A DNA stretch of 64,000 nucleotides from Yuukianura sp. NJ FZ-2021. Lineage: Eukaryota. The stretch is taken from the NCBI GenBank assembly GCA_046563655.1, contig CM102285.1, positions 11,346,001-11,410,000 on the forward strand, written 5' to 3'. Made by a program: the position numbers and the translations under genes. A model generated the notes under the pieces. That model was not told the origin of the DNA. It saw nothing but the letters and a program-made list of their open reading frames with translations, and did not search any database. Positions 3,001-57,039 of this stretch are shown in pieces (positions within the stretch are counted from its first letter, which is position 1; each line of letters begins with the position of its first letter).

Positions 3001-6000
3001 TAACTTTAAAATACTTATAGCGTCTGTTGCTTATGTTCGTAACAATCTGCCTTACCTGTACGTAAGTATTACGGTATAGTTAAAGGCTGTACAAGTATAT
3101 TGACCTCTTGACCTGGAATGTGGGAAATTTCCTAATGCGTCAATGTTATTGTAGTGTGTGTCACTCTCACCTTTAAAGTAACGACAAAAGAGTCAAAAAT
3201 TTTAAAGAAATTGTGACGCAAGTAGCCATTCCGGAAACCCTTAACGCTTCGCCGAACCTTTTTCTTTAAAATCCTTCCGCCTTCCTTTCCATATCTGCCT
3301 CTTAGCACTTATTCAACACAACCTGCTTTCTCCTTAGAAAAATGCTCCTCCTTTGTCCTTTGAAAAGAGTACTGTGAAAAATGAACAGTCTCCCCAATTT
3401 TGAAAACGTAAATTTCGTCACCGGAAGAGACATGCAGTTACTCAATGTCAACATTTTATTTATTTGCTTCTTGTGTGTAACGTGTTGAACATACTCCTTT
3501 TCCTCGTTTTTTTTGTAAACTCTATAAAATGGCATGGAGGACTTTGGGGAAAGCAGGACTGACCTTATGCACCCTGTGTGCCTTTGCCAAGGGAATTACA
3601 CTAAAAAAACTTTTACTACTTTTTTTTTCAGCGTTGCACCGTTCCATGGACATCAGCTGCTCTGGATGTTCTTACTTTACGGAGGAGTTCAAATCCAAAG
3701 TGCCCATAAGAGGCACTTCACCGGAAAAGTTTTACTGGGTTTTCCGGGTTTTGAAACATTGGAATACTTTTTATGCAGAGAGAAGGTTGGTCTAAGTTAC
3801 AGTTTTATGCAAAAACTCAATGGCCCTCAAAATAATTCGGCTAGCAACCGACCGCCGAATGTTGGACTACTAGTGAAAATTCAACCAGATTTAGAACGTG
3901 TCCGTCCTGCTTTCACGGACGGCACCCGTTTGTTTCGACTCATTTGCCCGCAAGCTCCGATGATCCCGTCATATACACTTTATTGCCGTTTTATTACAGG
4001 TCCACAAACCACACGTAAATCCTATTTCGGATTACCAGAGATGAAGCACATCCTAATTGGAATGAGTACAATAGGATCCATGAATGCCAGTGACCTCTAA
4101 AGCTCTTGAGGTCATGCCATGTCATCATCTTATTCACACTCTACTAACTTCGTTAAGGTCAGTACAAACTTCAAATCTTTTTTTCTAATGCAAAAAGTTT
4201 TCGCGTCTTTTTTCATTGCTTTCTCTTATGGAGAAAGCACAGTTTTCTGAAAAAGTATAGTTTTCTGACTCGAGTGACTAATTGTTAGTGGCCGCTATGG
4301 TTAAGGAGATAACTGACTGTTACTGACATATGCTTTTTACTGTTGAGGTAACGATTGCATGGTCAGAGGTCGTTCCATAATTTACAACCTCACACAGCCT
4401 ACACTGGCAGCATTTTACCAAAAGTAAATTGAATTCCTGTTTACAAGGTTTTCAACTTCACAGTGGTATCACGCAGGGTTCCGTCCAAAATTATCCGTTC
4501 AATCCACTACCCCTTCAGCTCCAGAACTGTTCAATTGTAAACTGAATTTCGAACAGTACTTTATACTGGCTGCCTCTTGCCAAAAAAAAATCTTTGATTC
4601 CTTCCTGTTGAATTATGCAAAAGGAAGCTACCCGTATATAATAATTCTCTTTCCGTTGAGCTCTTCTTACTCAATTCCTTTGATGTGCGCCCCACACCTC
4701 GATTCTTTGGCAGCGCTGGGCTTACCTTGTTCGGTGAAATCAAATCAATGTCAATTTCGTCTTCAATACGTGACACAAATTTCAATATGTGTTCAAAAGA
4801 AATTGACAGGCTTGCCAAAATGTTGCCAAAATGATAGATTGAAGTTCCCAGAAGTGTCCTTCCCTTCAACTGAGGTTAAAGTTTATTTCTAACGTCTCAA
4901 AGTTAGTATTCTACGAGGAGTTATAAAAATAGAAACTCTAATTAGGACTACAAATGGGAACTTAATTATAAACTTGTTTCGAACTTTTCGCTTTTTCAAC
5001 TCCATATTTCTTGTTTTTGTTTTTCTGAAAACTTTCTTCATTTCAAATGTTTATTTCATAAGGTGGGTTTGGTGGAGAAAGCAGAAGACGACAACAAAAG
5101 ACCAATTTGTCAATTTTAGCGTAGTTTTGTTGTTTGTATTACCTGAAATTAGATTTCTGTTCAATTAACTGGAGAATATTTGACGTCATCTTGTTCTAAA
5201 GTGTTTGCAGATATACCTAACATTCCCATCAGAGCTGGGGTTTCAAGTAGAGTTGTTATGAGGAATTTAGTATTTTCATCTGATGCATTCAGGCATCGAA
5301 GCTTGTTAAATTCTGGAACTCATTGAAACAGCCACGGACAATGGAAACCAGTTCCTCTCTCTCTCTATGTTGCTTCAAGTCCATCGATCAACACCATTTT
5401 GGCTCGTGAGACAAGAAACGGAACTTTCATGCTTCACCAACAATAGAATTTGAAGTGACAGGTAGTTGATTACATCCCATGTCAAAATCTCGGCTACGTT
5501 CGTCATCCACTTTGTTTCAGAAAAAATGGTGAGGTTCCAGAAACCACTATGTTTAGGGTAAAACTCTTTTAGAAAGTCAAATGATAATAGCAGAGGTCAG
5601 AATAACATAATGCAAAGGTAATGGACTTTCGCCGCAAGCTTACATTCCTCCTACATATATTCATTCAAATTTTCCGCTTTTCCGACTTTTCCTAAACCTA
5701 ATCCTGCGTGGTCAAGTGTCAAAGTCAATTAAGCCAATATCCTAGGGAGTGGAAAGGAAATTTCATTCGCTGTTCCTTCCGTAGCGTGTGTCATGAAAGT
5801 TAAACTTTTTGTGAGCTTTTTAGCCTAAAAAGTTTTAATCGCTGACTCGAGAAAGGTTTCTGAACTGTGAAAGTGGAACTGGAACGTAAACTCTTAAAAG
5901 CGTGATTTTTGAAAGTTTGACTTTTCTTTAAACTTTGTCTCTTCGCCGACTTCTGGGTCTTTAATAATATAGTTCCAATTCTCTCTTTGGTTTGGGCTTT

Positions 6001-9000
6001 CTAAGAGATTTTTGACTTAGGGTTCTAAGACTTTGTGTCAGATTAGTTTTTTTTCTCTCAAAAACGACCCGGACTAGTCATCTCGCTTTTTCTTAATATA
6101 GGAATTCAATTGGAAAAATTACTTCCTTTGCAAACAGAATACATGGTCGTCAGACGATGAAAAAACACTCTCGAAATACGGCTTTCTCCACAAGTTCTAG
6201 TCCAACTTTTTTTTGTCTGTGCACTCGGCTGTTCGACCCGTAAAAGTTGAATTCCTGATTTTGCTTTGATAAAAGTTTGTAGGAAAGAGTGGAATGTTTA
6301 GCCAAAAGATAAAATTTTGAATTCGGTATTACTAAAATGGAAGTGGATTTAGGGAAACTTGGTTTGGTAACAAAAATACAAACTTTCACCATTTGTCTGT
6401 CGTAATCTGTTTAAGTTAAACGAAAGCAGAATGTTGGTGATTAGAATCACCAAGGATTTGGCACCAAGCCCATTTCTCCAAAACCTACCTCTTAACTTCC
6501 AAAAATGGAAACAAATTTCAGTAATATTCGTTTTATATTATTAGAAGTACCTACTATTAAGGCATAGTGAGGCTCTGAAATTATGGACAACCAATAATTG
6601 CGTGAGCAGCAGAGAGCAAGAATTTTCTTTTTAACTAGGGCATTCACGTATTCTGAGTTCAAACTCAACACAAAATATTTGCAGAGTGAAAGTGGTAATT
6701 ATTTTAATTATGATTCCAGTGCGATTCCTCGACGGTCTACGGCGCATTCAAATTTTGCAAAATTGTTTCCATATAGTACATTCCATTCCAATTTCCATCA
6801 CAAATTCCAAATTTCGCCGCCTGTTTATTTCCTAACTTTCACTTTTAATTTTCACTTTTTGTAAATAGTATATAACATAATGGTAATCTAAAAATAGTTT
6901 TAATAAGTAAAAGTCTTAATAAGTCAGAAAAGTAACCAGGAGAGGTTTTATGCTAGAAAGAAAGGGATTTGGGGGAATCGGTGGAGGTTTCGTATAGTTT
7001 TCAATCACATTTTATACACAGACAGAAACCCTACTTTAAGCTGAACGTGACTTTGAGGTTTTTAGTAGAAATTGTTCGCTGAGGCCAATAAGTTTTGCTT
7101 AAAAGCCGGTTTTAGCCACAGGGGAAGGACGCGAAATTCAAATAAGTACGACACATTGTGTGTACATTTTCTATCACTGATACTTTGTCAGTGCTCAAAT
7201 TTTTAATCAAAGTGATGCAGTAGACCAGCAGCGTTGTAGAATGGACGTGATGGAACACAAAATCTGATTCCCTTTGGTACTAGAGTTAAATAGAGGCTTG
7301 GTGGTTTTGCTTTTAATTTTGTTCCAATTTCAAAGTATTTCGAATAGAATCTTCTAAACATCTCTCTCATTAGGTGCATGTTGGTGTTGATGTGCAGGTT
7401 AGGTAATAATTCGACCAGGCTGGTATGAAAAACCGACGGGAGCATCGACCACATCGTGTCATCTTTTACAGATGCATGTTGGAGTCTTTTGTATTCTTTA
7501 CAAGAATCCTTTTAATAATGGAAATCGAATTCAGCGACTTAGGAAGGCCATTAAGTAGGTCTTGAATTTCATCAGGGTTTATGTAAGTACTTAGGTGCTT
7601 ACAAGGGTTTCATCAGGGTTCTTGGAATTCATACATATTATGTGAATCACGTCAAAAGTTGACACAAAAGAGACATTTCTTATTCGAAAACAACGTCTTA
7701 AGAAATTAGTAGTTATTAGTTTATCATAAATTTATATGCATTGTCACGCTTCACTCCGCGTCCAATTTCGGTTTTGCAATTTAATGTTTTCCCAAACCCA
7801 CGATCAGGGAAAACTCGAATCATAAATTCTAAGAAGTTGGCATTAAAAGCCTACACGGTTCTAAAGTTGTGATGAGAATTTTGAGTAATGTGAAACAAAC
7901 TTGTTGCGCCAGAGCTCATCTTCTTGGTCACTCTATCGCATTTAATTTCTTGACATGTTATGATGTTAGTATTTTCCTAAATCGGCAAAATGTGGACCAA
8001 AACTGTTGTGCAAACATTCCAAATATTACTTTGCAGCTTAAAATCCAAGCTAACGAATACGTAAGCCTTAATAAGCCTTTTAGCCGTTGGTGAAAGCACG
8101 GCCCGAAAACTCATTTCTTGTAATAAATTTTCATTAATGCCTCCACCGCGGCAAGCCTCTCTTAGCAAAGTTGATTAATCAAAGGAGCCGCTCTATGCTT
8201 TTGGGCTGAAAAAACTTTGCCCTTTGTGTAATTAATATTGTTGTAACAGTCAAGGGAAGGTGTTCTACTGTGAATTGGACAAATTTTTAAACTGAATGTC
8301 AACTGCCAACCTTGGGATGAATTGTTTCTGACTTTTTTGCCTGAAATTTTGCCATAACTTTTGATTTCAAATGTTGTTAGTTTAATGAAGGGTAGAAATG
8401 GGAACAGTTGAATCAGAGACAATAAATTTGACCAAAAAGACGAAACCGGTTCAGTGGCTCTTTTCCAAAGGAAGGAATAGTTTTGATGCTCACTGAAACG
8501 CAAATAATTTTTATTTGTTGAAATTCCATTAATGGACAGGTTCTCCTTGTGTACCTTGGTCGTAGTTTGGAAAAAATGTATATAAACCGGATTTCACAAT
8601 TTTTTTGCTCAATTTTTTTCAAATATTTTGACATTGAGTAGTCATCGTTCTAATTAAAAAGTATTGAATAATTATTTTTCCAAATTAATACCAATCAGGG
8701 CGATCCTTAATTACGTTGATTGGGAAAACGTTGCTGTTTGCACCATCATTAGCTTGTACTGACTGAATTAAGGACGTAACCAAGGTAGTGGGCATTTGCC
8801 TCTGGAATATTAAAACTAACTAACATAGGAATTTAAAATTAGAGTACAGTTTAAATTGGTAACGTTGTTTATTAACTGAAAACCCACAAAAACAGCCGCA
8901 ACTGATTACAAGCACGAGTCTGTAAGAGTTAGTAATTAATTATTGAACTGCATTGAATGGCCGATACAATGATTTAAATTGGTCTCAAACCTCAAACGTG

Positions 9001-35080: not shown

Positions 35081-37251
35081 ATGGGATTGCCTTTCTTACT
35101 TTTTGTGCTAATTTCCAGCACTTTTGGATCTCCAGCCCAACGAGGTTTGTGTGAAAATCATTATCTCCAGCTTAAAATCGTATTTTGGTTCAAAAATTAT
35201 AATTTGCCTATCTGCAGCTCCAGCGTGCGGTGAGACGCGACTGAATTTGAAAGATGGCGACCATGGATACTTCTCATCGCCTGGTTATCCCAGAAATTAC
35301 AGAGGCGGCGTAGAGTGTGAATATCGTTATGAGGTTAAGAAAGCAGCAGTAATGTAGTACCTTGCGCCTTGTGGTGAAAGTTAAGCAACTTTTGTTAATG
35401 CTTATGCGATTTTTTTCTCATAGGGAGCCCCTGGCACGGTCGTCCAAGCCACTGTATTTGACCTCAAAACACAAAATGCTCTGCTGACCGACATCTCTGA
35501 TTCTCTTTACGTTTCACTAAGTGGAAATTGGAACGACAGCCAACGGTAAGCCAATGAAAAAGTCTGAATTTGATCAAAACACAACAGAAGTGAATTTTGT
35601 GAACAGGTATTCTGGAGATTTGGCTCCAGTGACCCCGATGGTCTTGGTTTCAGACGGAAATACATTGGCGTTTAGATTCAGATCATCTAGATTTAGCGAA
35701 GGCAGCAAAGGATTTCGAATAGGCTACTTCGTTAGGGTAAGACGCTTGCACAATTTCAACTTGCAGTTAACCAGATCGGATCCAAAGAAAAGTGCTGAAT
35801 CTTTCAGGCAAGTACTTCTGGAAAACCTGCTTTGTCCGAACCTGCTCACGATATTTACGTCGGTAAGTTCAGTAATGATTAATCATAAAAGCAATTCTTG
35901 TAGCTTTCCCTAATCTGGTTGCTTTTGCTAACAGTGACTGTGTGCAACTACGTTCCTGTGGACACTCCGCAAACATTTCCGGAACAAGGCATCAGTCGTG
36001 TTACCGTGGAAGGAATTAACAGGACAAATCCAAATCCATTCTTAGTAGCTTTAGTTTTGGATGACAATCAGTTTTGCTCCGGAACCCTGATTAGTGATCG
36101 CCATGTCCTTACCAGTTCACACTGTACGCGCGGGTATGTACCAATATTTCTTTGAATTTAGCCAAGATCGTTTACATGCCACCATGTTCAAAAATAATTC
36201 CGGAGCTATAAACTTTCTTTGCAATTTCTAGGGTGAAGAAAGTGGACATGATTTTTGGAACTGACAATTTGATGTCCGAGGATGACGGAGTTCAGAAAAG
36301 AAGTGCCCCGGCTTCATCAATCACCCAGCATCCAAATTTTGACCCCTACACTGGTGAAAATGACATGAGCGTGATCACACTAGATAAACCTGTCGACGTA
36401 ACAGGTAACTCAGAGCTAACAAACAGAAAACGGTAGAAGTTCTTACGGATTGAACTGAACGAACTGAAAGAAAATTCTTACCTTCAACCTTTTCAATTTA
36501 GCTTTCGTTATTCCTGCAACTGTTCCAACCTGGTCATTGATGGGAACCACTTTCACTGGTTTCAAAGGCGACATTGTGGGCTGGGGAGACTCCAAAAGTA
36601 AGCCACACAGAGAAATAAACTGAAAACAAATACTAGACCAAGCAATAAAACTTGATACTTTGAATTTCGAAATTTAGGTGGAACAGTTTATAGTCAAGCC
36701 GGAAGAAAGTCACTGAACGTGTCCCCAAATGCTGCTTGTAGTGTGGGCAATCGAGGTCATACAGGACTTTCAATGTGTAGTCGAATGTCACCAGGTCTAA
36801 CTTGTCAGGTAACAACTCCAACGACTTTTACGTTATAACTTCAATTTGACAAATGAAAACTACTAAATTCCTTTTTCAGGCCGACTCAGGGAGCCCTATC
36901 GTCGCAAGTCGTGCTTACTGTAATGGACCAGTCAACCAAAACAACAATGGCGACAACGGAATCAACAACTCAGCTCAACATCCCTCAAGACCTCAGAAAC
37001 CAGTCAAACCAGGAGCAAAGCCAAACAGGCCAACCAAACCAAACAGACCAAACAGGCCTGACGATGATCTGAGGGATGACACTGAACCATTTTTAGCCGC
37101 ACCAGCCTTAACAAAGTACAAAGCCAATATTCTACTCGGATTGGTTTCTCACGGGTCTTGCGAGAAAGGATTTACATTCACACGAGTGACCTCTCAACTT
37201 GACTTTCTTTCACAATTCATAACGCTCCACAGTGACACGCCATACATTTGA
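35081..37251 (+). CDS. Secreted CUB-domain + trypsin-fold serine protease, copy 1 (His/Asp/Ser triad retained), ~10 exons
   Basis: Signal-like MGLPFLLFVLISSTFG. CUB motifs CGE..GYFSSPGYPRNY..ECEY and FRFRS..KGFRIGY. Protease motifs FCSGTLISDRHVLTSSHC, HPNFDPYTGENDMSVITL, VGWG, CQADSGSPIV and LLGLVSHGSC..FTRV..LDF. Confidence 0.85.
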
Positions 37252-37510: not shown

Positions 37511-37893
37511 GATTTCGTTTTATACAACTCTTTTCAACTGCAACAAATGGAAATCATGATACTATAAAGTACTTGGACTGTTAATTGCTAATATCTGCGA
37601 ATTAACTGAGAGTAACGATTGGCGGACGAAACAATAATTCTTTTCCTGTAAAAAATAAATTCTCGTGTCTATGACCCTGCGACTCTACTGCAAACAGGTA
37701 TCGAAGCGGCAGTTCTTTGTTGAATCCTAATACTGTGTTTCTCAATTAGCTAAAACCCTAATTTTATTCAACCAGACACAATTGAAATGCTACGGAGATT
37801 GATCAAGGTTATAAATATACCCTGGAGTTGGACATGCCACGTAGTTTTTAGGGACTTTGCTACTCAGTGAATTAGTTGAACACTAACCAAATC

Positions 37894-40800
37894 ATGCTGA
37901 GACCATCACTAATTTTGGCAATTTCCTTAGGGATCTACTTTCACTATTTCGTTTTAGAAAGTGACGCTGTTTCCTTGCGTGCGAAACTGTGGAGTTCAAC
38001 AGAAGATGGGACGGATGCAACTCTTCCGGCTGCTTCTGATGCAAAAGGTAGGACATAACTTTCTCCATGGATAACTTTTAGCCGAAGAAAGTCAATCATA
38101 ACAGTCATGATTAGAAGTTAAGTCATTAACGTGTAAATTTCGAATTGACCTTAGTCACTCCACCTGTATGCGGTGGAACGCTTACTGGACTGAAGGCTGG
38201 CTCGAATGGTATCATTGAAAGCCCAAACTATCCTAACAAATATCCACGTGGAACAGAATGCGTTTGGACCCTAAAGGTATTTACAAACTGAAGCTTTCAC
38301 TTTCGTTAAAAATGCTCAGTTTTAACAAAACAAAACTAAAATACGAGCAAAAATATAACACAGACTTTGGATTTACTCAGGCTGAGCCCGGTGTTGCTAT
38401 CCATGCAACAGTATTTGATCTTAAGACTTACAGTGATCCCTTAACAGAAGTTTCCGATTCGCTCTACGTTTCACTTGTTGGACAATGGAACAATACTCAA
38501 CGGTCAGAAAAAAATTATTCCTTCATTGAATATCATAAAGAGAAAGCGATTTTTTTTTGAAAATCCGCATTTTAACCACCAAAGATTTTGAATTTAGCTT
38601 AGAATCAGTTTAAACTTTCACCAATTTTCTGAGAAAGAAAGAAAAGGAAAGCTAAATTTTCAAACAACCCTCCCAAGTAATAAGTAGCAACCTTTTAAAA
38701 AAACTTTGCAGATTTGCTGGAGACTTGACAGGGGTGACTCCATTTCCTTTGATTTCTGAAGCAAACGAATTTTTGATCAAGTTCAAGTCAAATGCAAAGG
38801 ACGGCAATGCTCGTGGCTTTCGTATGGGATACTACGTAAGGGCCCACTAATACTCTCCCTTGAACTTTCTCTTAAAATGTTCAACTTTCTCTAGAAATTT
38901 TGAAGTTTCTCTTGGAATTTTCAATCTTCTCCACTTTTGTCGTTTTAGGTTACGAGAAAAAAACCGGCCCTTACGGAACCAGCCAATCAAGTTATTGCAG
39001 GTTCATAGCAAACCAAACTCACTTTCCGTTAAATCAGAAAAATGTGAATCTTTTATGTCAAGAAATGTGAATTAAAAGTAAAACACTTTCTCTTTTAGTT
39101 TCTTGCAACTATCACTATGCTCCAGTACCAGCCATATTCCCAGAATCTGGCGGAGCCCTACGACTATATAAAGAAAGCCTAAAAAATCTACGCCAAATTC
39201 GTCGAGACAATCCAAATCCATTCCTCGTCGGTTTAGTGTTGGACGATAGTCAATTTTGCTCTGGAACACTTGTCAGTCATTACCATATTGTCACATCAGG
39301 CCATTGTCTCTACCAGTAAGTCCCCACTCATCATTCTTCCAATGGTAAAATTATGACCAAAAAATTGAATTCTAACAAAGAAGCTAAGTTTCCCATATTA
39401 CTGGAAACCAAAGAGCTTCCAAGAGAGCTAAATCCGGCTACAGCCAACGTATTAATGAGTACTCCAATCGATGACGAAATTTCCCCGTGACGCAACGACC
39501 AAAATCCTGTCACTAAAGATTTCTAAACAGTGATTTTTTTTTTGGCAGAGTCCAGAAAATAGACCTGGTGTTTGGAACAAGCGATTTAAACGTAGATGAT
39601 GCTGGAGTACAAAGACGCTCGGTTAATGCCTCATCAGTAATAATTCATCCAAAGTTTAATGCCAAAACAGGCGCAAATGACATCAGTATTATCACACTTA
39701 GCACTCCGGTGGAATACACAAGTAAAATTATAATTCGGAATTTCAAAAATTAAGAAAAACCACCCTAACCCAAATTTGTTTCCGCTGCAGGATTCGTCAG
39801 AGCAGCTCGACTTCCAACATGGAACTTACTAACTGCTCCCTTGGTGGGGCTAAATGTGGAGCTCAGTGGATGGGGCGAACATGGTCAGCATCTTTCGCTA
39901 CTTTGAATCCAACCCTTTTCATAACTAAAACTAAACTGCTAGTTTTGTGTATCAAACTTTCAGATGGAAATATTATTTCCCAAGCAAGTAGAAGCAAGCT
40001 GACATTGGCACCACAGTTGACCTGCAGGTCAACTCTACAAAAAGGGCTGAATGGAATGACAATGTGTGCGGCACCGAATGAGCAACTATGCACGGTATAT
40101 GTTGACCGACTTTAACTGACCTAAACTGGCTCAAAATTAGTTTTTAACCTTTACATACGAATTTAGTCGGATACTGGAAGTCCAGTGACAACAAGATGTC
40201 ACGACAACACTGGGGGCGGAAACGTACGTGCCTACCTACACGTTAACTTTAATATTACGTTAGTAATTAATATCAGTTTCTACTTTACTATTTCTAGGTG
40301 CAGGAGGTAAACACTGGCGAATTCATTATTACCAGACTGGTGAAAGTGAACTTTCACCACAGGTATGTCATTTAAGCGTGAATGTTTAAAATCTGTTTCA
40401 ATTATGATTCCAGGGACAAGGATCGCCAACGGTAAGGAAGCGTTTTTCTTTTTTCGAAAGTTCCTTAAAAAAAAAGATCGATTTGATGCTGGTTTTTAAC
40501 GGATATCTTTGACTGATTGTTGTCACTCTACCAATTCTACCATCATCACAGGTTGTAGAGGTGAGATTTTAGACTTTTGCAATTTCATTAATTTCACTCT
40601 ATAATTTTAAACTGAAATTCTACATTTACGTTCTAGCCCGATGGGAACGAACAAGTAAGAAATATATTTTTCGAGCACCCTCTGTATGTTAAACAGTGCA
40701 AATCTTGTCAAAAACTATGTTTTTTTAACTTTCAGGAATACGAGGTAAGAAATCTGACCAGAATGCTGAATAATAAGAATGACCAAATCGTGATGAATTT

Positions 40801-43020
40801 GAGTCTCCAACAAAATTAGTCTTTTTGTGAAGTAATTTTTCTAAACACATAATCGAAATTAGCGAAATTTTTAGCTACAAATTCTTGTACCTGAAGCAGA
40901 CTCAGCCTGTTTTGAGAGTGATAAATGATTTTCAGCCATTGGGGACAATAATTTCTTGGAAATAGGACATTGGAGAAACTATTTAGAGATAATTTGTTAA
41001 AATTCTTCCTTAAATTCTTAGGAAGAGTACGAGTATGAAGACGAAAATGAGGTAACCCAATACTTTCACTTTATCACATCAAAATGTAAATGGAAGCTGG
41101 TTCCCTTTTTCTTTAAATATATAATGTTGCTTGCTAAATGATGTGCAGGTTTTTAAAATTCGTCTGGCTAGAATTAAGTGTAACTGCGTTAACATAAGAA
41201 CCACTTTTTTCTCTCGAATATCTAGGGTGAAGATGAGTATGAAGATGAAGAGGAGGATGAGGAGGAAGATGAAGAAGAAGATGAGGAGGAAGATGAAGAG
41301 GAAGACGAAGAAGAAGATGAAGAAGAAGATGAGGAGGAAGATGAAGAAGAGGATGAGGAGGAAGATGAAGAGGAGGATGAGGAGGAAGATGAAGAAGAGG
41401 ACGAGGAAGAAGATGAGGAGGAGGACGAAGAAGAAGATGAGGAGGAAGATGAAGAAGAAGATGAGGAGGAGGACGAAGAAGAAGATGAGGAGGAAGATGA
41501 AGAAGAAGATGAGGAGGAGGACGAAGAAGAAGATGAGGAGGAAGATGAAGAAGAAGATGAGGAGGAGGACGAAGAAGAAGATGAGGAGGAAGATGAAGAA
41601 GAAGATGAGGAGGAAGACGAAGACGAAGGTGTAGATGAAGATGAGGATGAAGACGAAAGTGTAGATGAGGATGAGGATGAAGACGAAGGCGTGGATGAGG
41701 ATGAGGATGAAGACGAAGGTGTAGATGAGGATGAAGAAATTGATGAGGAGGAAATTCTCGAGGAAGAAGTTGTTGAACCAACTGAAGATGAAGAAGAAGA
41801 TGCTATTGAACAGGAAGATGAAAATGAGGTAAGGATGTTTCAAAATATGGGAACTAATTCAAAGTTGCGTCGCTTGTAGCAAAAGCTAGAATTCGCTCGT
41901 CCGAATAAGTAATTTTTAGCAAATTACAACACCGATCAGTTAGACCTAGTGAACACATTACACATTTAGTCTACAGTTTAATAGTCTACATTTACAAAAA
42001 TAACAGCAATCTTTCAGGCAGAAGATGTAAGCCAAGACGCAGATGAGGTAAGGAAAATCGTTCGAAATGCAGTGTCTGTAGGAAACTGAAAATAGGAAAT
42101 GTTGATGCGTATTTCTCACATCTTTAACGCATTTCCGTCTAATAATTTAATATTTCAATTTTACAAGGACGAAGACCTGAACGAAGATGAAGATGAAGAT
42201 GCGGTAAGAAAAAACGCAAAAATTCCCAATAAATTATATCTCTCTCCATGATCTAAGATTGAGTAAATGATACTCCAATTTTATAATTGCAATTTTTAAT
42301 CGACAGGATGAGGATGTGGACGAACAGGTAAACCCAGATACGAACACACGCACCCTAAACTTTACGTTTCCAAAAGAAAAGAACTTAAAAACCAGAAAAC
42401 CAATCATTTTGAAATCTAAGCCAATTATCTCATCAAAAATTTTTGTACAATCCTTCATGTCTTTCACTAGGCGGATGCCGATGAAGAAGAAGACGGCCTA
42501 ACCAACGTAAGTTTCTGTTTTGTCACTGCGTGTGAGACATACCTAAGCATTCATCTAACACAAAAACAAAGAATCAAAAGGAATTTCCCCACTTGATTTG
42601 TCATGTACTTTTTCTAAATATGGCCAAAAACAGCCTGTGACCGGAACGAAAGTTCCCAACGAAGCTGGACAAGGATCTAACCTAGCGTCGTCGGAGAAAG
42701 CAACTAAACCTACAAGCCAAACTTCACCCTCTTCTAGTCGACTCCATGTGCGCAAACTGTCTATAAGAACTTTCACCGCTAAGTCAATTAATTACAAGCA
42801 ACTTTAAAAAATCTATTTGGTGTGTCAATTTTAGGACCGTCGCGACAAGCACCAAAAAGCGTTGGATTACACAACCCGTCCAACAGGAAACGTTCTGTTG
42901 GGTATAATGTCTTTCGGCAATTGTAACCAAGGAATTGCTTTCACCAGGCTCATTGCACATCTCGACTTCATCAGAAGTACTATTGGGGAATGGTATAAAG
43001 AAACTGAGGAAACACACTAA
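37894..43020 (+). CDS. Secreted CUB + serine protease homologue, copy 2 (catalytic Ser->Thr), with a ~340 aa polyacidic insertion inside the protease domain; ~23 exons, ~790 aa
   Basis: Signal-like N-terminus. CUB motif CGG..GIIESPNYPNKYPRGTECVW. Protease motifs FCSGTLVSHYHIVTSGHC, HPKFNAKTGANDISIITL, SGWG and CTSDTGSPV. A run of phase-0 acidic exons follows (40298-42747). The last exon, 42835-43020, encodes NVLLGIMSFGNCNQGIAFTRLIAHLDFI, which aligns with the C-terminus of copy 1. Confidence 0.8.
41226..41828 (+). repeat. Coding minisatellite: (DEEE)n 12-nt units with a 48-nt higher-order repeat, then ~30-nt DEDEDEDE(G/S)V units; one 201-codon exon
   Basis: Purine-rich gatgaggaggaa/gatgaagaagaa/gacgaagaagaa array, bounded by a tctag acceptor (41225) and a gtaag donor (41829); 603 nt and open in the acidic frame. 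Confidence 0.92.
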
Positions 43021-55535: not shown

Positions 55536-57039
55536 ATGCCGCTAGAAGTAGACCAAGAATTGCTGGAGAAAAATCCGGATCTTATGTTGGCCCAGTACAA
55601 ATTTCTGCTTGAAAATGCGGAGTCTCTTCCGCAATTTAGCGCTGCAGACAAGAAACGCTTGGAAGGTCAACTCCTGGCGGCCATAAAGAAGGACAACATG
55701 GCTCCTTTCTTTGAAAAACTTTGCAGCGATTTTAAGAATATGGATTCTATCAAAATGGATCAAAGACTCTACGATGAAATGAAGGAGCGGAATACATTGA
55801 AAATTCAAGAGTTTGACGCCTACATTGAAGATGCTGAGAAGAATTTAACCGAAATGGAAGTTCGGGAAAAGAATCTTGTCAAATCCGAGTATCTTTGCCG
55901 AATTGGAGATTTCGATGGAGCACTGACGGCTTTTCGTAAAACGTTTGAGAAAACAGTGTCCTTGGGACAACGCCTTGATATCATTTTTCATCTCATACGC
56001 ATCGGGCTATTCAATATGGATCACGACGTTATTTCTCGAAACATCGAGAAGGCTAAGATGCTGATTGATGAAGGAGGCGATTGGGACAGGCGTAATCGTC
56101 TTAAAGTGTATCAGGTATTCAATAAAACGAAAGGCTTTTTGGATTTGTCATCTGGATCTGAGTAGAGATCTCAGCATTATGTGAAATAGAATCATTGATA
56201 TTGAACCTAGGGTGCTCGCTCACAGTTCTTCTACTTTACTATTTCTAGGGTACTTATTCCATGGCAATTCGGGATTTCAAGACCTCGGCGTCCCAATTTC
56301 TCGAAACAATTTCAACATTCACTTCTTATGAACTCATGGATTACAACGATTTCGTCCGATATACTGTTATCGTTTCAATGATTGCTTTACCCCGGAATGA
56401 ACTCTACGACAAGATCATCAAAGGAGCTGAAATCCAAGAAGTGCTTCATTCTCCTCGCCAGAAGCTTCTCCGCTCGTATGTCATGTCCTTATACGACTGC
56501 AAGTATGCCCAGTTCTTTTTGGATCTGGCAGAAATCGAAGGGGTAAGCATAAGCAAAGAGACACGAATGCCGCACTAGTCACTACAGCATGAACTATCAA
56601 TTAACTTTGTGAATCGAATCTATCAGGTTTTGAAGGAAGATCGCTTGCTGAATCCGCATTACCGGTTCTACGTTCGTGAAATGAGAGTGAAGGCTTACAG
56701 CCAACTTTTGGAGTCGTACAGCAGCTTGACCCTAAAATACATGGCAGATTCGTTCGGCGTTACTCAGGACTTCATCGACAAGGAGCTTCATCGCTTTATT
56801 GCCGCTGGCAGACTTCACTGTAAAATCGACAAGGTTGCTGGTAAGTACCAACCAAGGTTGACTCAAATAACAGAGGTTTCTGTAAAACGAAATTTAACAA
56901 TATGGAATCTGATGTTCTCATAGGGGTGGTTGAAACGAATCGTCCAGACAGCAAAAACGCACAGTACCAAGCCACCATCAAGCAAGGCGACGTTCTACTC
57001 AATCGAATTCAAAAGCTTTCTCGCGTCATCAACATTTAA
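55536..57039 (+). CDS. PSMD6: 26S proteasome lid subunit Rpn7; exons 55536-56114, 56249-56542, 56627-56840, 56924-57039
   Basis: [96 protein letters not shown]. Confidence 0.97.

Follow-up and report, generated by a model that had tools for sequence, protein, structure and literature searches.

A 64,000-nt stretch of contig CM102285.1 from Yuukianura sp. NJ FZ-2021 (the window) contains two paralogous genes that lie head to tail on the plus strand, gene A at approximately 35.1–37.25 kb and gene B at approximately 37.9–43.0 kb. Gene B contains the subject of this report, an array of 13 candidate exons (40224–42834), eleven of them no longer than 36 nt, which probably encodes a long acidic insertion in a protease fold. 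Exons for a CUB domain and for a trypsin fold are present in both genes, and their Pfam scores exceed the curated cut-offs. The CUB domain (PF00431, cut-off 21.4 bits) scores 31 bits in gene B, at 38130–38291, and 21.7 bits in paralog A. The gene B exons that encode the catalytic His and Asp match Trypsin (PF00089, cut-off 20.6 bits) with 23.7 and 27.7 bits, and paralog A matches the same family with 26.3 bits. The last two exons of gene B, taken alone, gave no match in the Pfam search.

Reading gene B from its 5' side, an open frame at 37876–38058 encodes a hydrophobic N-terminus by our judgement by eye (MLRPSLILAISLGIYFHYFVL), and the product is probably a secreted protein. The CUB-domain exons span approximately 38130–38850 and align in tblastn with 63–89% identity to positions 4953–5504 of L004, one of five related environmental loci described below. 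The exon with the catalytic His (codon 39302–39304) has its edges inside an open frame at 39071–39319, and the catalytic Asp (codon 39679–39681) lies in an open frame at 39517–39753. The following exon (39966–40094) ends with ...NEQLCT on a codon boundary and is 81% identical to L004 6402–6530. The nucleophile exon (SDTGSPVTTRCHDNTGGGN, 40167–40223) is 57 nt long and begins and ends in phase 0; its relative at L004 6617–6676 encodes ADSGSP. The last exon (42835–43020) supplies the C-terminal strands (…LLGIMSFGNCNQGIAFTRLIAHLDFI…, with LLGIMSFGNC...FTRL...LDFI) and the stop codon, and is 65–69% identical to L001, L002 and L003. An AATAAA motif follows 269 nt past the stop. In this gene the nucleophile part and the C-terminal part are thus split by 2.6 kb.

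The probable insertion site in the protease fold

The original prediction had placed the array inside a protease fold. This location is upheld by the Trypsin matches on the His and Asp exons and by a weak profile alignment to strands of S1 proteases: a profile of the paralog A last exon aligns weakly (E 0.08–0.4) to the GDSGGP and GIVSWG...C strands of solved S1 structures. Only about two residues part the xDSGxP strand from the GxVSxG…C strand in solved S1 chains, which places the insertion in a tight turn within the C-terminal barrel. A position of the array inside the predicted trypsin fold, between the nucleophile motif and the last strands, is therefore supported. S1 proteases and arthropod serine-protease homologs share with genes A and B the Trypsin match, the xDxGxP motif and a C-terminal GxxSxGxxC...TR...Y/LDF/WI signature, but where they have a turn of about two residues, genes A and B have insertions of 77–320 amino acids.

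Paralog A, the tandem neighbour, and its kin (protein fragments P0002–P0004, L004 302–2310 and L005) share CUB and trypsin-fold parts with gene B and carry their insertion at the same turn, after xDSGSP. The last exon of paralog A (36850–37248) holds ADSGSP, the loop and the C-terminal strands in one piece. This loop (36889–37119) has 77 residues, is rich in Pro, Lys and Asn, and contains 12 K/R, 7 D/E and 12 P; its type is kept in P0002–P0004 and at L004 1984–2310. By comparison, the gene B loop would comprise 320 residues, be polyacidic and be assembled from 13 exons. Loops of opposite charge, basic in A and acidic in B, are hence found at the same turn of neighbouring genes.

The catalytic triad of gene B is incomplete, as assigned by motif rather than by structure. 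His and Asp are kept, but the position where Ser is expected is occupied by Thr (codon ACT, 40173–40175, in the motif SDTGSP). Ser is present at this position elsewhere, encoded by AGT in the B gene of the relative and by TCA in paralog A. In this species, gene B may encode a protease with weak activity or none. The canonical IVGG N-terminus is not seen in the gene B His exon, as read from the translated frame.

Anatomy and coding signal of the candidate exon array

The array consists of eleven micro-exons of 9–36 nt, one 603-nt unit and one 114-nt unit. AG stands before every unit and GT after it, and all unit lengths are divisible by three. The coordinates, splice-site bounds, lengths and translations given in the original prediction were all reproduced, and the 603-nt exon that it mentioned was located at 41226–41828. 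The first six units are short: VQE (9 nt, 40298–40306), TGESELSPQ (27 nt, 40336–40362, donor score 6), GQGSPT (18 nt, 40414–40431), VVE (9 nt, 40552–40560), PDGNEQ (18 nt, 40637–40654) and EYE (9 nt, 40736–40744), the last four of which are backed by the splice-site scans and the chance test described below. Micro-exon 7 (EEYEYEDENE, 30 nt, 41022–41051) has all seven of its GA dinucleotides in frame 0. The large acidic repeat exon follows, with 201 codons, a tandem repeat period of 24/48 nt and a marked codon-position bias. Downstream of it lie micro-exons 8 (AEDVSQDADE, 30 nt, 42018–42047), 9 (DEDLNEDEDEDA, 36 nt, 42168–42203), 10 (DEDVDEQ, 21 nt, 42307–42327) and 11 (ADADEEEDGLTN, 36 nt, 42471–42506, donor score 6). 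Units 8, 9 and 11 are marked by their splice sites and by the frame of their GA dinucleotides; the acceptor of unit 9 is AAG instead of YAG. The last nine nucleotides of unit 10 recur exactly at L001 1217–1225. The final unit (42634–42747, 114 nt, 38 amino acids) is rich in Ser, Thr and Pro and has weak splice signals on both sides; its counterpart is a 213-nt G/P-rich unit at L001 1305–1517.

Joined together, the 13 units add up to 960 nt, or 320 codons with 222 D/E, 4 K/R and no stop; the eleven micro-exons account for 243 of these nucleotides. The flanking exons (40167–40223 and 42835–43020) both start and end on codon boundaries. Since the unit lengths are divisible by three as well, any subset of units can be removed without a frameshift, and the arithmetic of the original prediction on this point was correct. 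The array introns measure, in order, 74, 29, 51, 120, 76, 81, 277, 174, 189, 120, 103, 143, 127 and 87 nt. With the exception of the 29-nt intron between units 1 and 2, all are at least 51 nt long, and sizes of 51–277 nt are normal for this compact arthropod genome; the homology-defined introns of the RPN7 gene in the same window are approximately 134, 85 and 70 nt long. Units 1 and 2 would be hard to include together because the intervening intron has 29 nt, and probably serve as mutual alternatives, unless one of the two goes unused.

Other ways to parse the region were rejected. If 40298–40362 is read as a single 65-nt exon, the frame is shifted and a TAG is met within unit 4. A stand-alone acidic gene is excluded by the lack of an in-frame Met in the 603-nt frame. 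A recent tandem duplication of exon-plus-intron units was also discarded: the introns share just 14–19-nt repeats at chance level and, because no repeats connect the introns, the units did not arise recently by copying from each other.

In favor of micro-exon 1, its acceptor (40278–40298) shares 21 identical nucleotides (TTCTACTTTACTATTTCTAGG) with the acceptor of a homology-supported RPN7 intron (56229–56249). The similarity ends outside these 21 nt, and shuffled sequences lead one to expect 0.01 such matches, even with up to three mismatches.

The scans of the region and of the background were run independently of the earlier unit list. The thresholds of the unit test were chosen after the units were known, and several settings agree. 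A filter for short units (6–27 nt, YAG acceptor, pyrimidine tract of at least 0.6, donor score of at least 4, length divisible by three, open frame) passed 52 units in 117,800 nt of background. In the first 798 nt of the array (40224–41021) six units pass this filter where 0.35 are expected (Poisson P 2e-6), which bears out the earlier claim that such a run of frame-preserving units exceeds chance. With a stricter donor threshold, five units pass in the same stretch versus 0.07 expected. Across the array, 9 of the 13 donors match at least five of seven consensus positions, a score reached by just 3.95% of the 6,986 GT sites in the window. The motif GTRAG occurs ten times on the plus strand of the 2,611-nt region and once on the minus strand. 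An open unit divisible by three, with its nearest YAG within 40 nt, precedes 5 of the 10 GTRAG sites in the region, compared with 19 of 218 in 122,778 nt of background. Under loose criteria, acidic open units divisible by three number ten on the plus strand and none on the minus strand of the region; the two 61,389-nt remainders contain 5 and 8 (approximately 0.1 per kb).

These counts bear on the idea that true exons are limited to the larger units, with 603 nt, 114 nt or, for the acidic ones, 21–36 nt, and that some or all of the 9–18-nt units in 40298–40744 are decoys within one 798-nt intron. The 9-nt units have no coding signal independent of their splice sites, the 29-nt intron is too short, approximately 0.35–0.5 such units are expected by chance in a stretch of 798 nt, and some of the tiny candidates in relatives are ambiguous. 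On the other hand, six units were found where 0.35 are expected, five of the six donors are within the top 4% of GT sites, and the spacing of the units fits the normal intron size. A comparable run of 6–18-nt units is present at the same place in a relative, and an intron of 798 nt would exceed the other introns in these genes. We consider decoys an unlikely account of the first stretch.

The array also carries a coding signal. When the frame is set by the splice sites alone, 40 of the 44 GA dinucleotides in the eleven short units fall on codon positions 1 and 2 (frame 0). Units of 21–36 nt have 5–9 GA in frame 0 and 0–1 in the other frames, so that here the signal is internal and strong. In the 603-nt exon, the first codon position is G in 191 of 201 codons and the second is A in 183, with a mixed third position. 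The tandem-repeat periods in the window, 24 and 48, are all multiples of three. T makes up 14% of the twelve shorter units, as compared to 34% of 1,651 nt of introns.

An entirely different account would treat 40224–42834 as one intron with a GA-rich microsatellite, so that the mRNA joins 40223 to 42835 and encodes an ordinary compact protease domain. Such a junction would be in frame, the resulting loop would be no longer than that of paralog A, and all six frames of the repeat are open. What speaks against a single intron is that variation in the 603-nt exon is confined to the third codon position, that strong donors are enriched on one strand, and that the acidic units lie in frame with splice sites of their own. 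Repeat periods in multiples of three recur in three arrays from two species, and the architecture is kept despite sequence turnover. We judge a single intron very unlikely; if the exons are unused, the locus is a protease gene with a repeat-bearing intron.

Related loci and the weight of the evidence

One scan of environmental contigs returned the five related loci (L001–L005). In L004, an A-type gene and a B-type gene follow one another in the order and orientation seen in the window, with a degenerate 3' fragment of B type between them. With the same layout and different sequences, L004 appears to be the syntenic ortholog locus of a related species. After its ADSGSP exon (6617–6676), L004 contains AG/GT-bounded units of 12, 9, 12, 6, 18, 9 and 12 nt; the long repeat exon that comes next is acidic and continues beyond the contig end. 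The L001 contig comes from the same sample and opens inside an acidic repeat exon. Downstream lie three units (9, 6 and 21 nt), an E/N/P repeat exon of 612 nt, another unit of 9 nt, the 213-nt G/P-rich exon and the last exon. All of these units are divisible by three, the introns measure 64–568 nt, and the repeat periods in the relatives (6–129 nt) are again all multiples of three. The contig L001 possibly continues the B-type gene of L004. The 9 nt shared between species, GACGAACAG|GTAA, are common to unit 10 and L001 1217–1225. It would thus be the architecture, rather than the sequence, that is conserved, a pattern to be expected if real exons code for a disordered segment that evolves fast.

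Two of these loci hold further remnants or variants of the gene B 3' part. Between the A-type and B-type genes, L004 3240–3760 holds a B-type last exon in degenerate form. Compared with L001 and L002 it has deletions, and two 21-nt AG/GT-bounded units that code for G and P precede it. This copy is probably a pseudogene fragment. In L003 (positions 1–460), no intron separates an acidic stretch (EEEPEEEEAEDD) from the last exon, which is longer here. The acceptor upstream of this exon would place it in phase 1, unlike the phase 0 found elsewhere.

The protein collections contributed less. Searched against longer proteins, the last exon of gene B matched one of three candidates, P0001, which is an unspliced open reading frame on L003; the exon 39966–40094 gave no candidates among longer proteins. 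The last exon of paralog A gave five matches among 1.84 billion representatives, namely three A-type environmental fragments (P0002–P0004), all with a basic KP-rich loop, and two seemingly unrelated proteins (P0005 and P0006). A pattern scan of genome contigs returned 32 pattern matches, none of which was confirmed.

Taken together, we consider it probable that a chain of phase-0 exons encodes a polyanionic insertion of approximately 320 residues in the trypsin fold of gene B. For the array as a whole, we also lean towards the units being real exons that build a polyacidic loop, with lower confidence in each 9-nt unit. Several points weigh against this interpretation. The 29-nt intron between units 1 and 2 is below any confident intron in the window. 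The 114-nt unit is weak, with a pyrimidine content of 0.27 in its acceptor tract and GTGCGC as a donor. The coding signal of the three 9-nt units does not go beyond what the consensus AG|G…GAG|GT dictates, and the openness of the 603-nt repeat frame is no evidence because all six frames are open there. In the relatives, the units were chosen by eye, and L004 and L001 may represent one gene or two. Outside the one shared stretch of 9 nt, the small units are unalignable between species. The loose scan of splice-site pairs in the relatives is noisy: without selection, candidates divisible by three make up 11 of 20 in L004, 5 of 15 in L001 and 176 of 491 over all loci and both strands. A spliced relative of gene B was not found in the protein collections searched. 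Transcription and splicing of the array, and the disorder and secretion of its product, are predicted from the DNA sequence.

Finally, Thr at the nucleophile position could signal gene decay. If gene B were a decaying duplicate, the array would be a relic with no present function. The change from Ser to Thr (ACT versus AGT in the relative) would fit this idea, as would the degenerate B-type 3' fragment at approximately 3560–3760 of L004, since this fragment shows that copies of this family do decay. Yet the 15 exons from 40167 to 43020 contain neither stops nor frameshifts, His and Asp are kept, the splice sites are intact, and the AATAAA motif stands downstream of the stop. Decay seems highly improbable to us.

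Possible origin and splicing of the array, and comparison with known micro-exon systems

How might such an array arise and be spliced? In the interpretation that we favor, the tight turn between the nucleophile strand and the last strands of the C-terminal barrel would have grown into a polyanionic, presumably disordered insertion. Short arthropod introns are spliced by intron definition, and a 9-nt exon between introns of 50–120 nt poses no steric problem. The short introns of the array may be recognized as units in the same way and, because each would then be defined as a unit, the size of the exon would hardly matter. Runs of purine-rich GAR codons are classical exonic enhancers; in the array, such codons may double as splicing enhancers and, along with strong GTRAG donors, favor inclusion. 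The uniform phase 0 could be a by-product of how the insertion can grow. Of 53 AG|G sites in the acidic tract, 50 coincide with a codon boundary. Phase 0 might follow from composition, because AG|G proto-splice sites in tracts of GAN codons fall on codon boundaries; furthermore, pieces added in the middle of a fold would have to be frame-neutral because others would not survive. The symmetry of the units would allow in-frame isoforms with skipped exons but does not prove them.

The original prediction went further and proposed that cassettes, including the 603-nt exon, are skipped in a regulated way that tunes the length and charge of the loop across tissues or moult stages. Phase 0 is shared by all 15 exon edges between 40167 and 42835, and every subset thus remains in frame. 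In addition, the 29-nt intron hinders joint inclusion of units 1 and 2, a second donor (GAT|GTAAGC at 42027), also in frame, lies inside micro-exon 8 and would give a 9-nt version that encodes AED, and the number and content of units vary between species, as expected of dispensable cassettes. As counterarguments, phase 0 is explicable by composition, and TGC, corresponding to the upstream UGC element of regulated neuronal micro-exons (SRRM3/4), occurs at positions −22 to −3 of only 1 of the 13 array acceptors. The strong donors are also more typical of constitutive micro-exons: according to one report (PMC8831610), micro-exons that are spliced constitutively lean towards stronger splice sites, and by analogy the strong splice sites of the array resemble those of the constitutive class. 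Regulated skipping strikes us as unlikely, and the phase-0 exon chain described above remains our preferred interpretation.

The resemblance to schistosome micro-exon genes (MEGs) that had been pointed out holds for the short symmetric exons, but not for the size, share of coding sequence and intron length that define MEGs. According to a description of MEGs (PMC10526429), these genes have 10–20 exons of 6–81 bp, mostly divisible by three, a signal peptide and alternative splicing; their proteins are small (the longest has 189 amino acids) and their introns measure 100–5000 bp. MEGs and the array have in common runs of very short exons, mostly divisible by three, and secreted, fast-evolving products, where secretion is predicted in the case of gene B. 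The coding sequence of MEGs consists almost wholly of micro-exons, whereas here they make up 243 of the 960 nt of the insertion, in addition to ordinary CUB and protease exons. The gene B insertion alone, with 320 residues, exceeds the approximate MEG maximum of 189 amino acids, and the array introns (29–277 nt) contrast with the 100–5000 bp of MEGs. Finally, MEGs are flatworm genes and gene B is an arthropod gene. The array may hence be seen as an analogue of schistosome MEGs in architecture only, not as a member of that family.

Two other systems invite comparison. Bilaterian neuronal micro-exons (3–27 nt, regulated by SRRM3/4) share a feature with the array: they are tiny exons divisible by three, each of which contributes a few residues to a surface loop of a folded domain. 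Neuronal micro-exons are single or paired, deeply conserved in sequence and dependent on an upstream UGC element; the array differs by having eleven in a row with fast-evolving sequence. Titin PEVK and fibrillar collagen have exons of mostly 45–100 nt that encode stand-alone regions between domains. They resemble the array in their consecutive phase-0 exons, low-complexity product, growth by repeat expansion and possible in-frame skipping, but their exons are not inserted into a globular enzyme fold. Among the titles and abstracts of the literature that we searched, micro-exon arrays are described for flatworm MEGs only, with no array from an arthropod or within a protease domain.

If the exons are real, an arthropod gene contains eleven consecutive micro-exons, some of just 9 nt, and a globular enzyme fold tolerates a disordered insertion of 320 residues at a two-residue turn. 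The locus would then be a test bed for the recognition of very short exons between short introns. The array would almost certainly be mis-annotated by standard gene finders and RNA-seq aligners. The pairing of a basic loop (A) with an acidic loop (B) in tandem paralogs suggests a charge-based function. More speculatively, a hexapod lineage would have independently evolved a MEG-like cassette system in a surface hairpin of a CUB protease. We think this decidedly unlikely. If it were true, combinatorial skipping of up to 13 exons would give secreted proteins with graded polyanionic loops, which might act together with the basic loop of paralog A at the same position, and the family would diversify by rapid gain, loss and expansion of cassettes.

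The window is animal DNA in which the genes are compact, and its remainder was characterized by Pfam searches on open reading frame fragments. A search of the whole window against Rfam gave no matches at gathering score. The Pfam matches point to a rhodopsin-type G-protein-coupled receptor (10.8–18.7 kb, plus strand) upstream of the protease genes. On the downstream side follow RPA1 (43.5–46.2 kb, minus strand), a proteasome alpha subunit (53.3–54.1 kb, minus strand), RPN7 (55.5–57.2 kb, plus strand) and a queuosine-salvage protein (57.6–60.3 kb, plus strand). Iwr1 is also matched by a fragment from the window. Judged from one gene, RPN7, the source would be a hexapod or other small arthropod, probably of springtail type: the fragment shares 73% identity with an environmental protein and, among named proteins, comes closest to that of the springtail Isotomurus palustris (64% identity), ahead of many insects.

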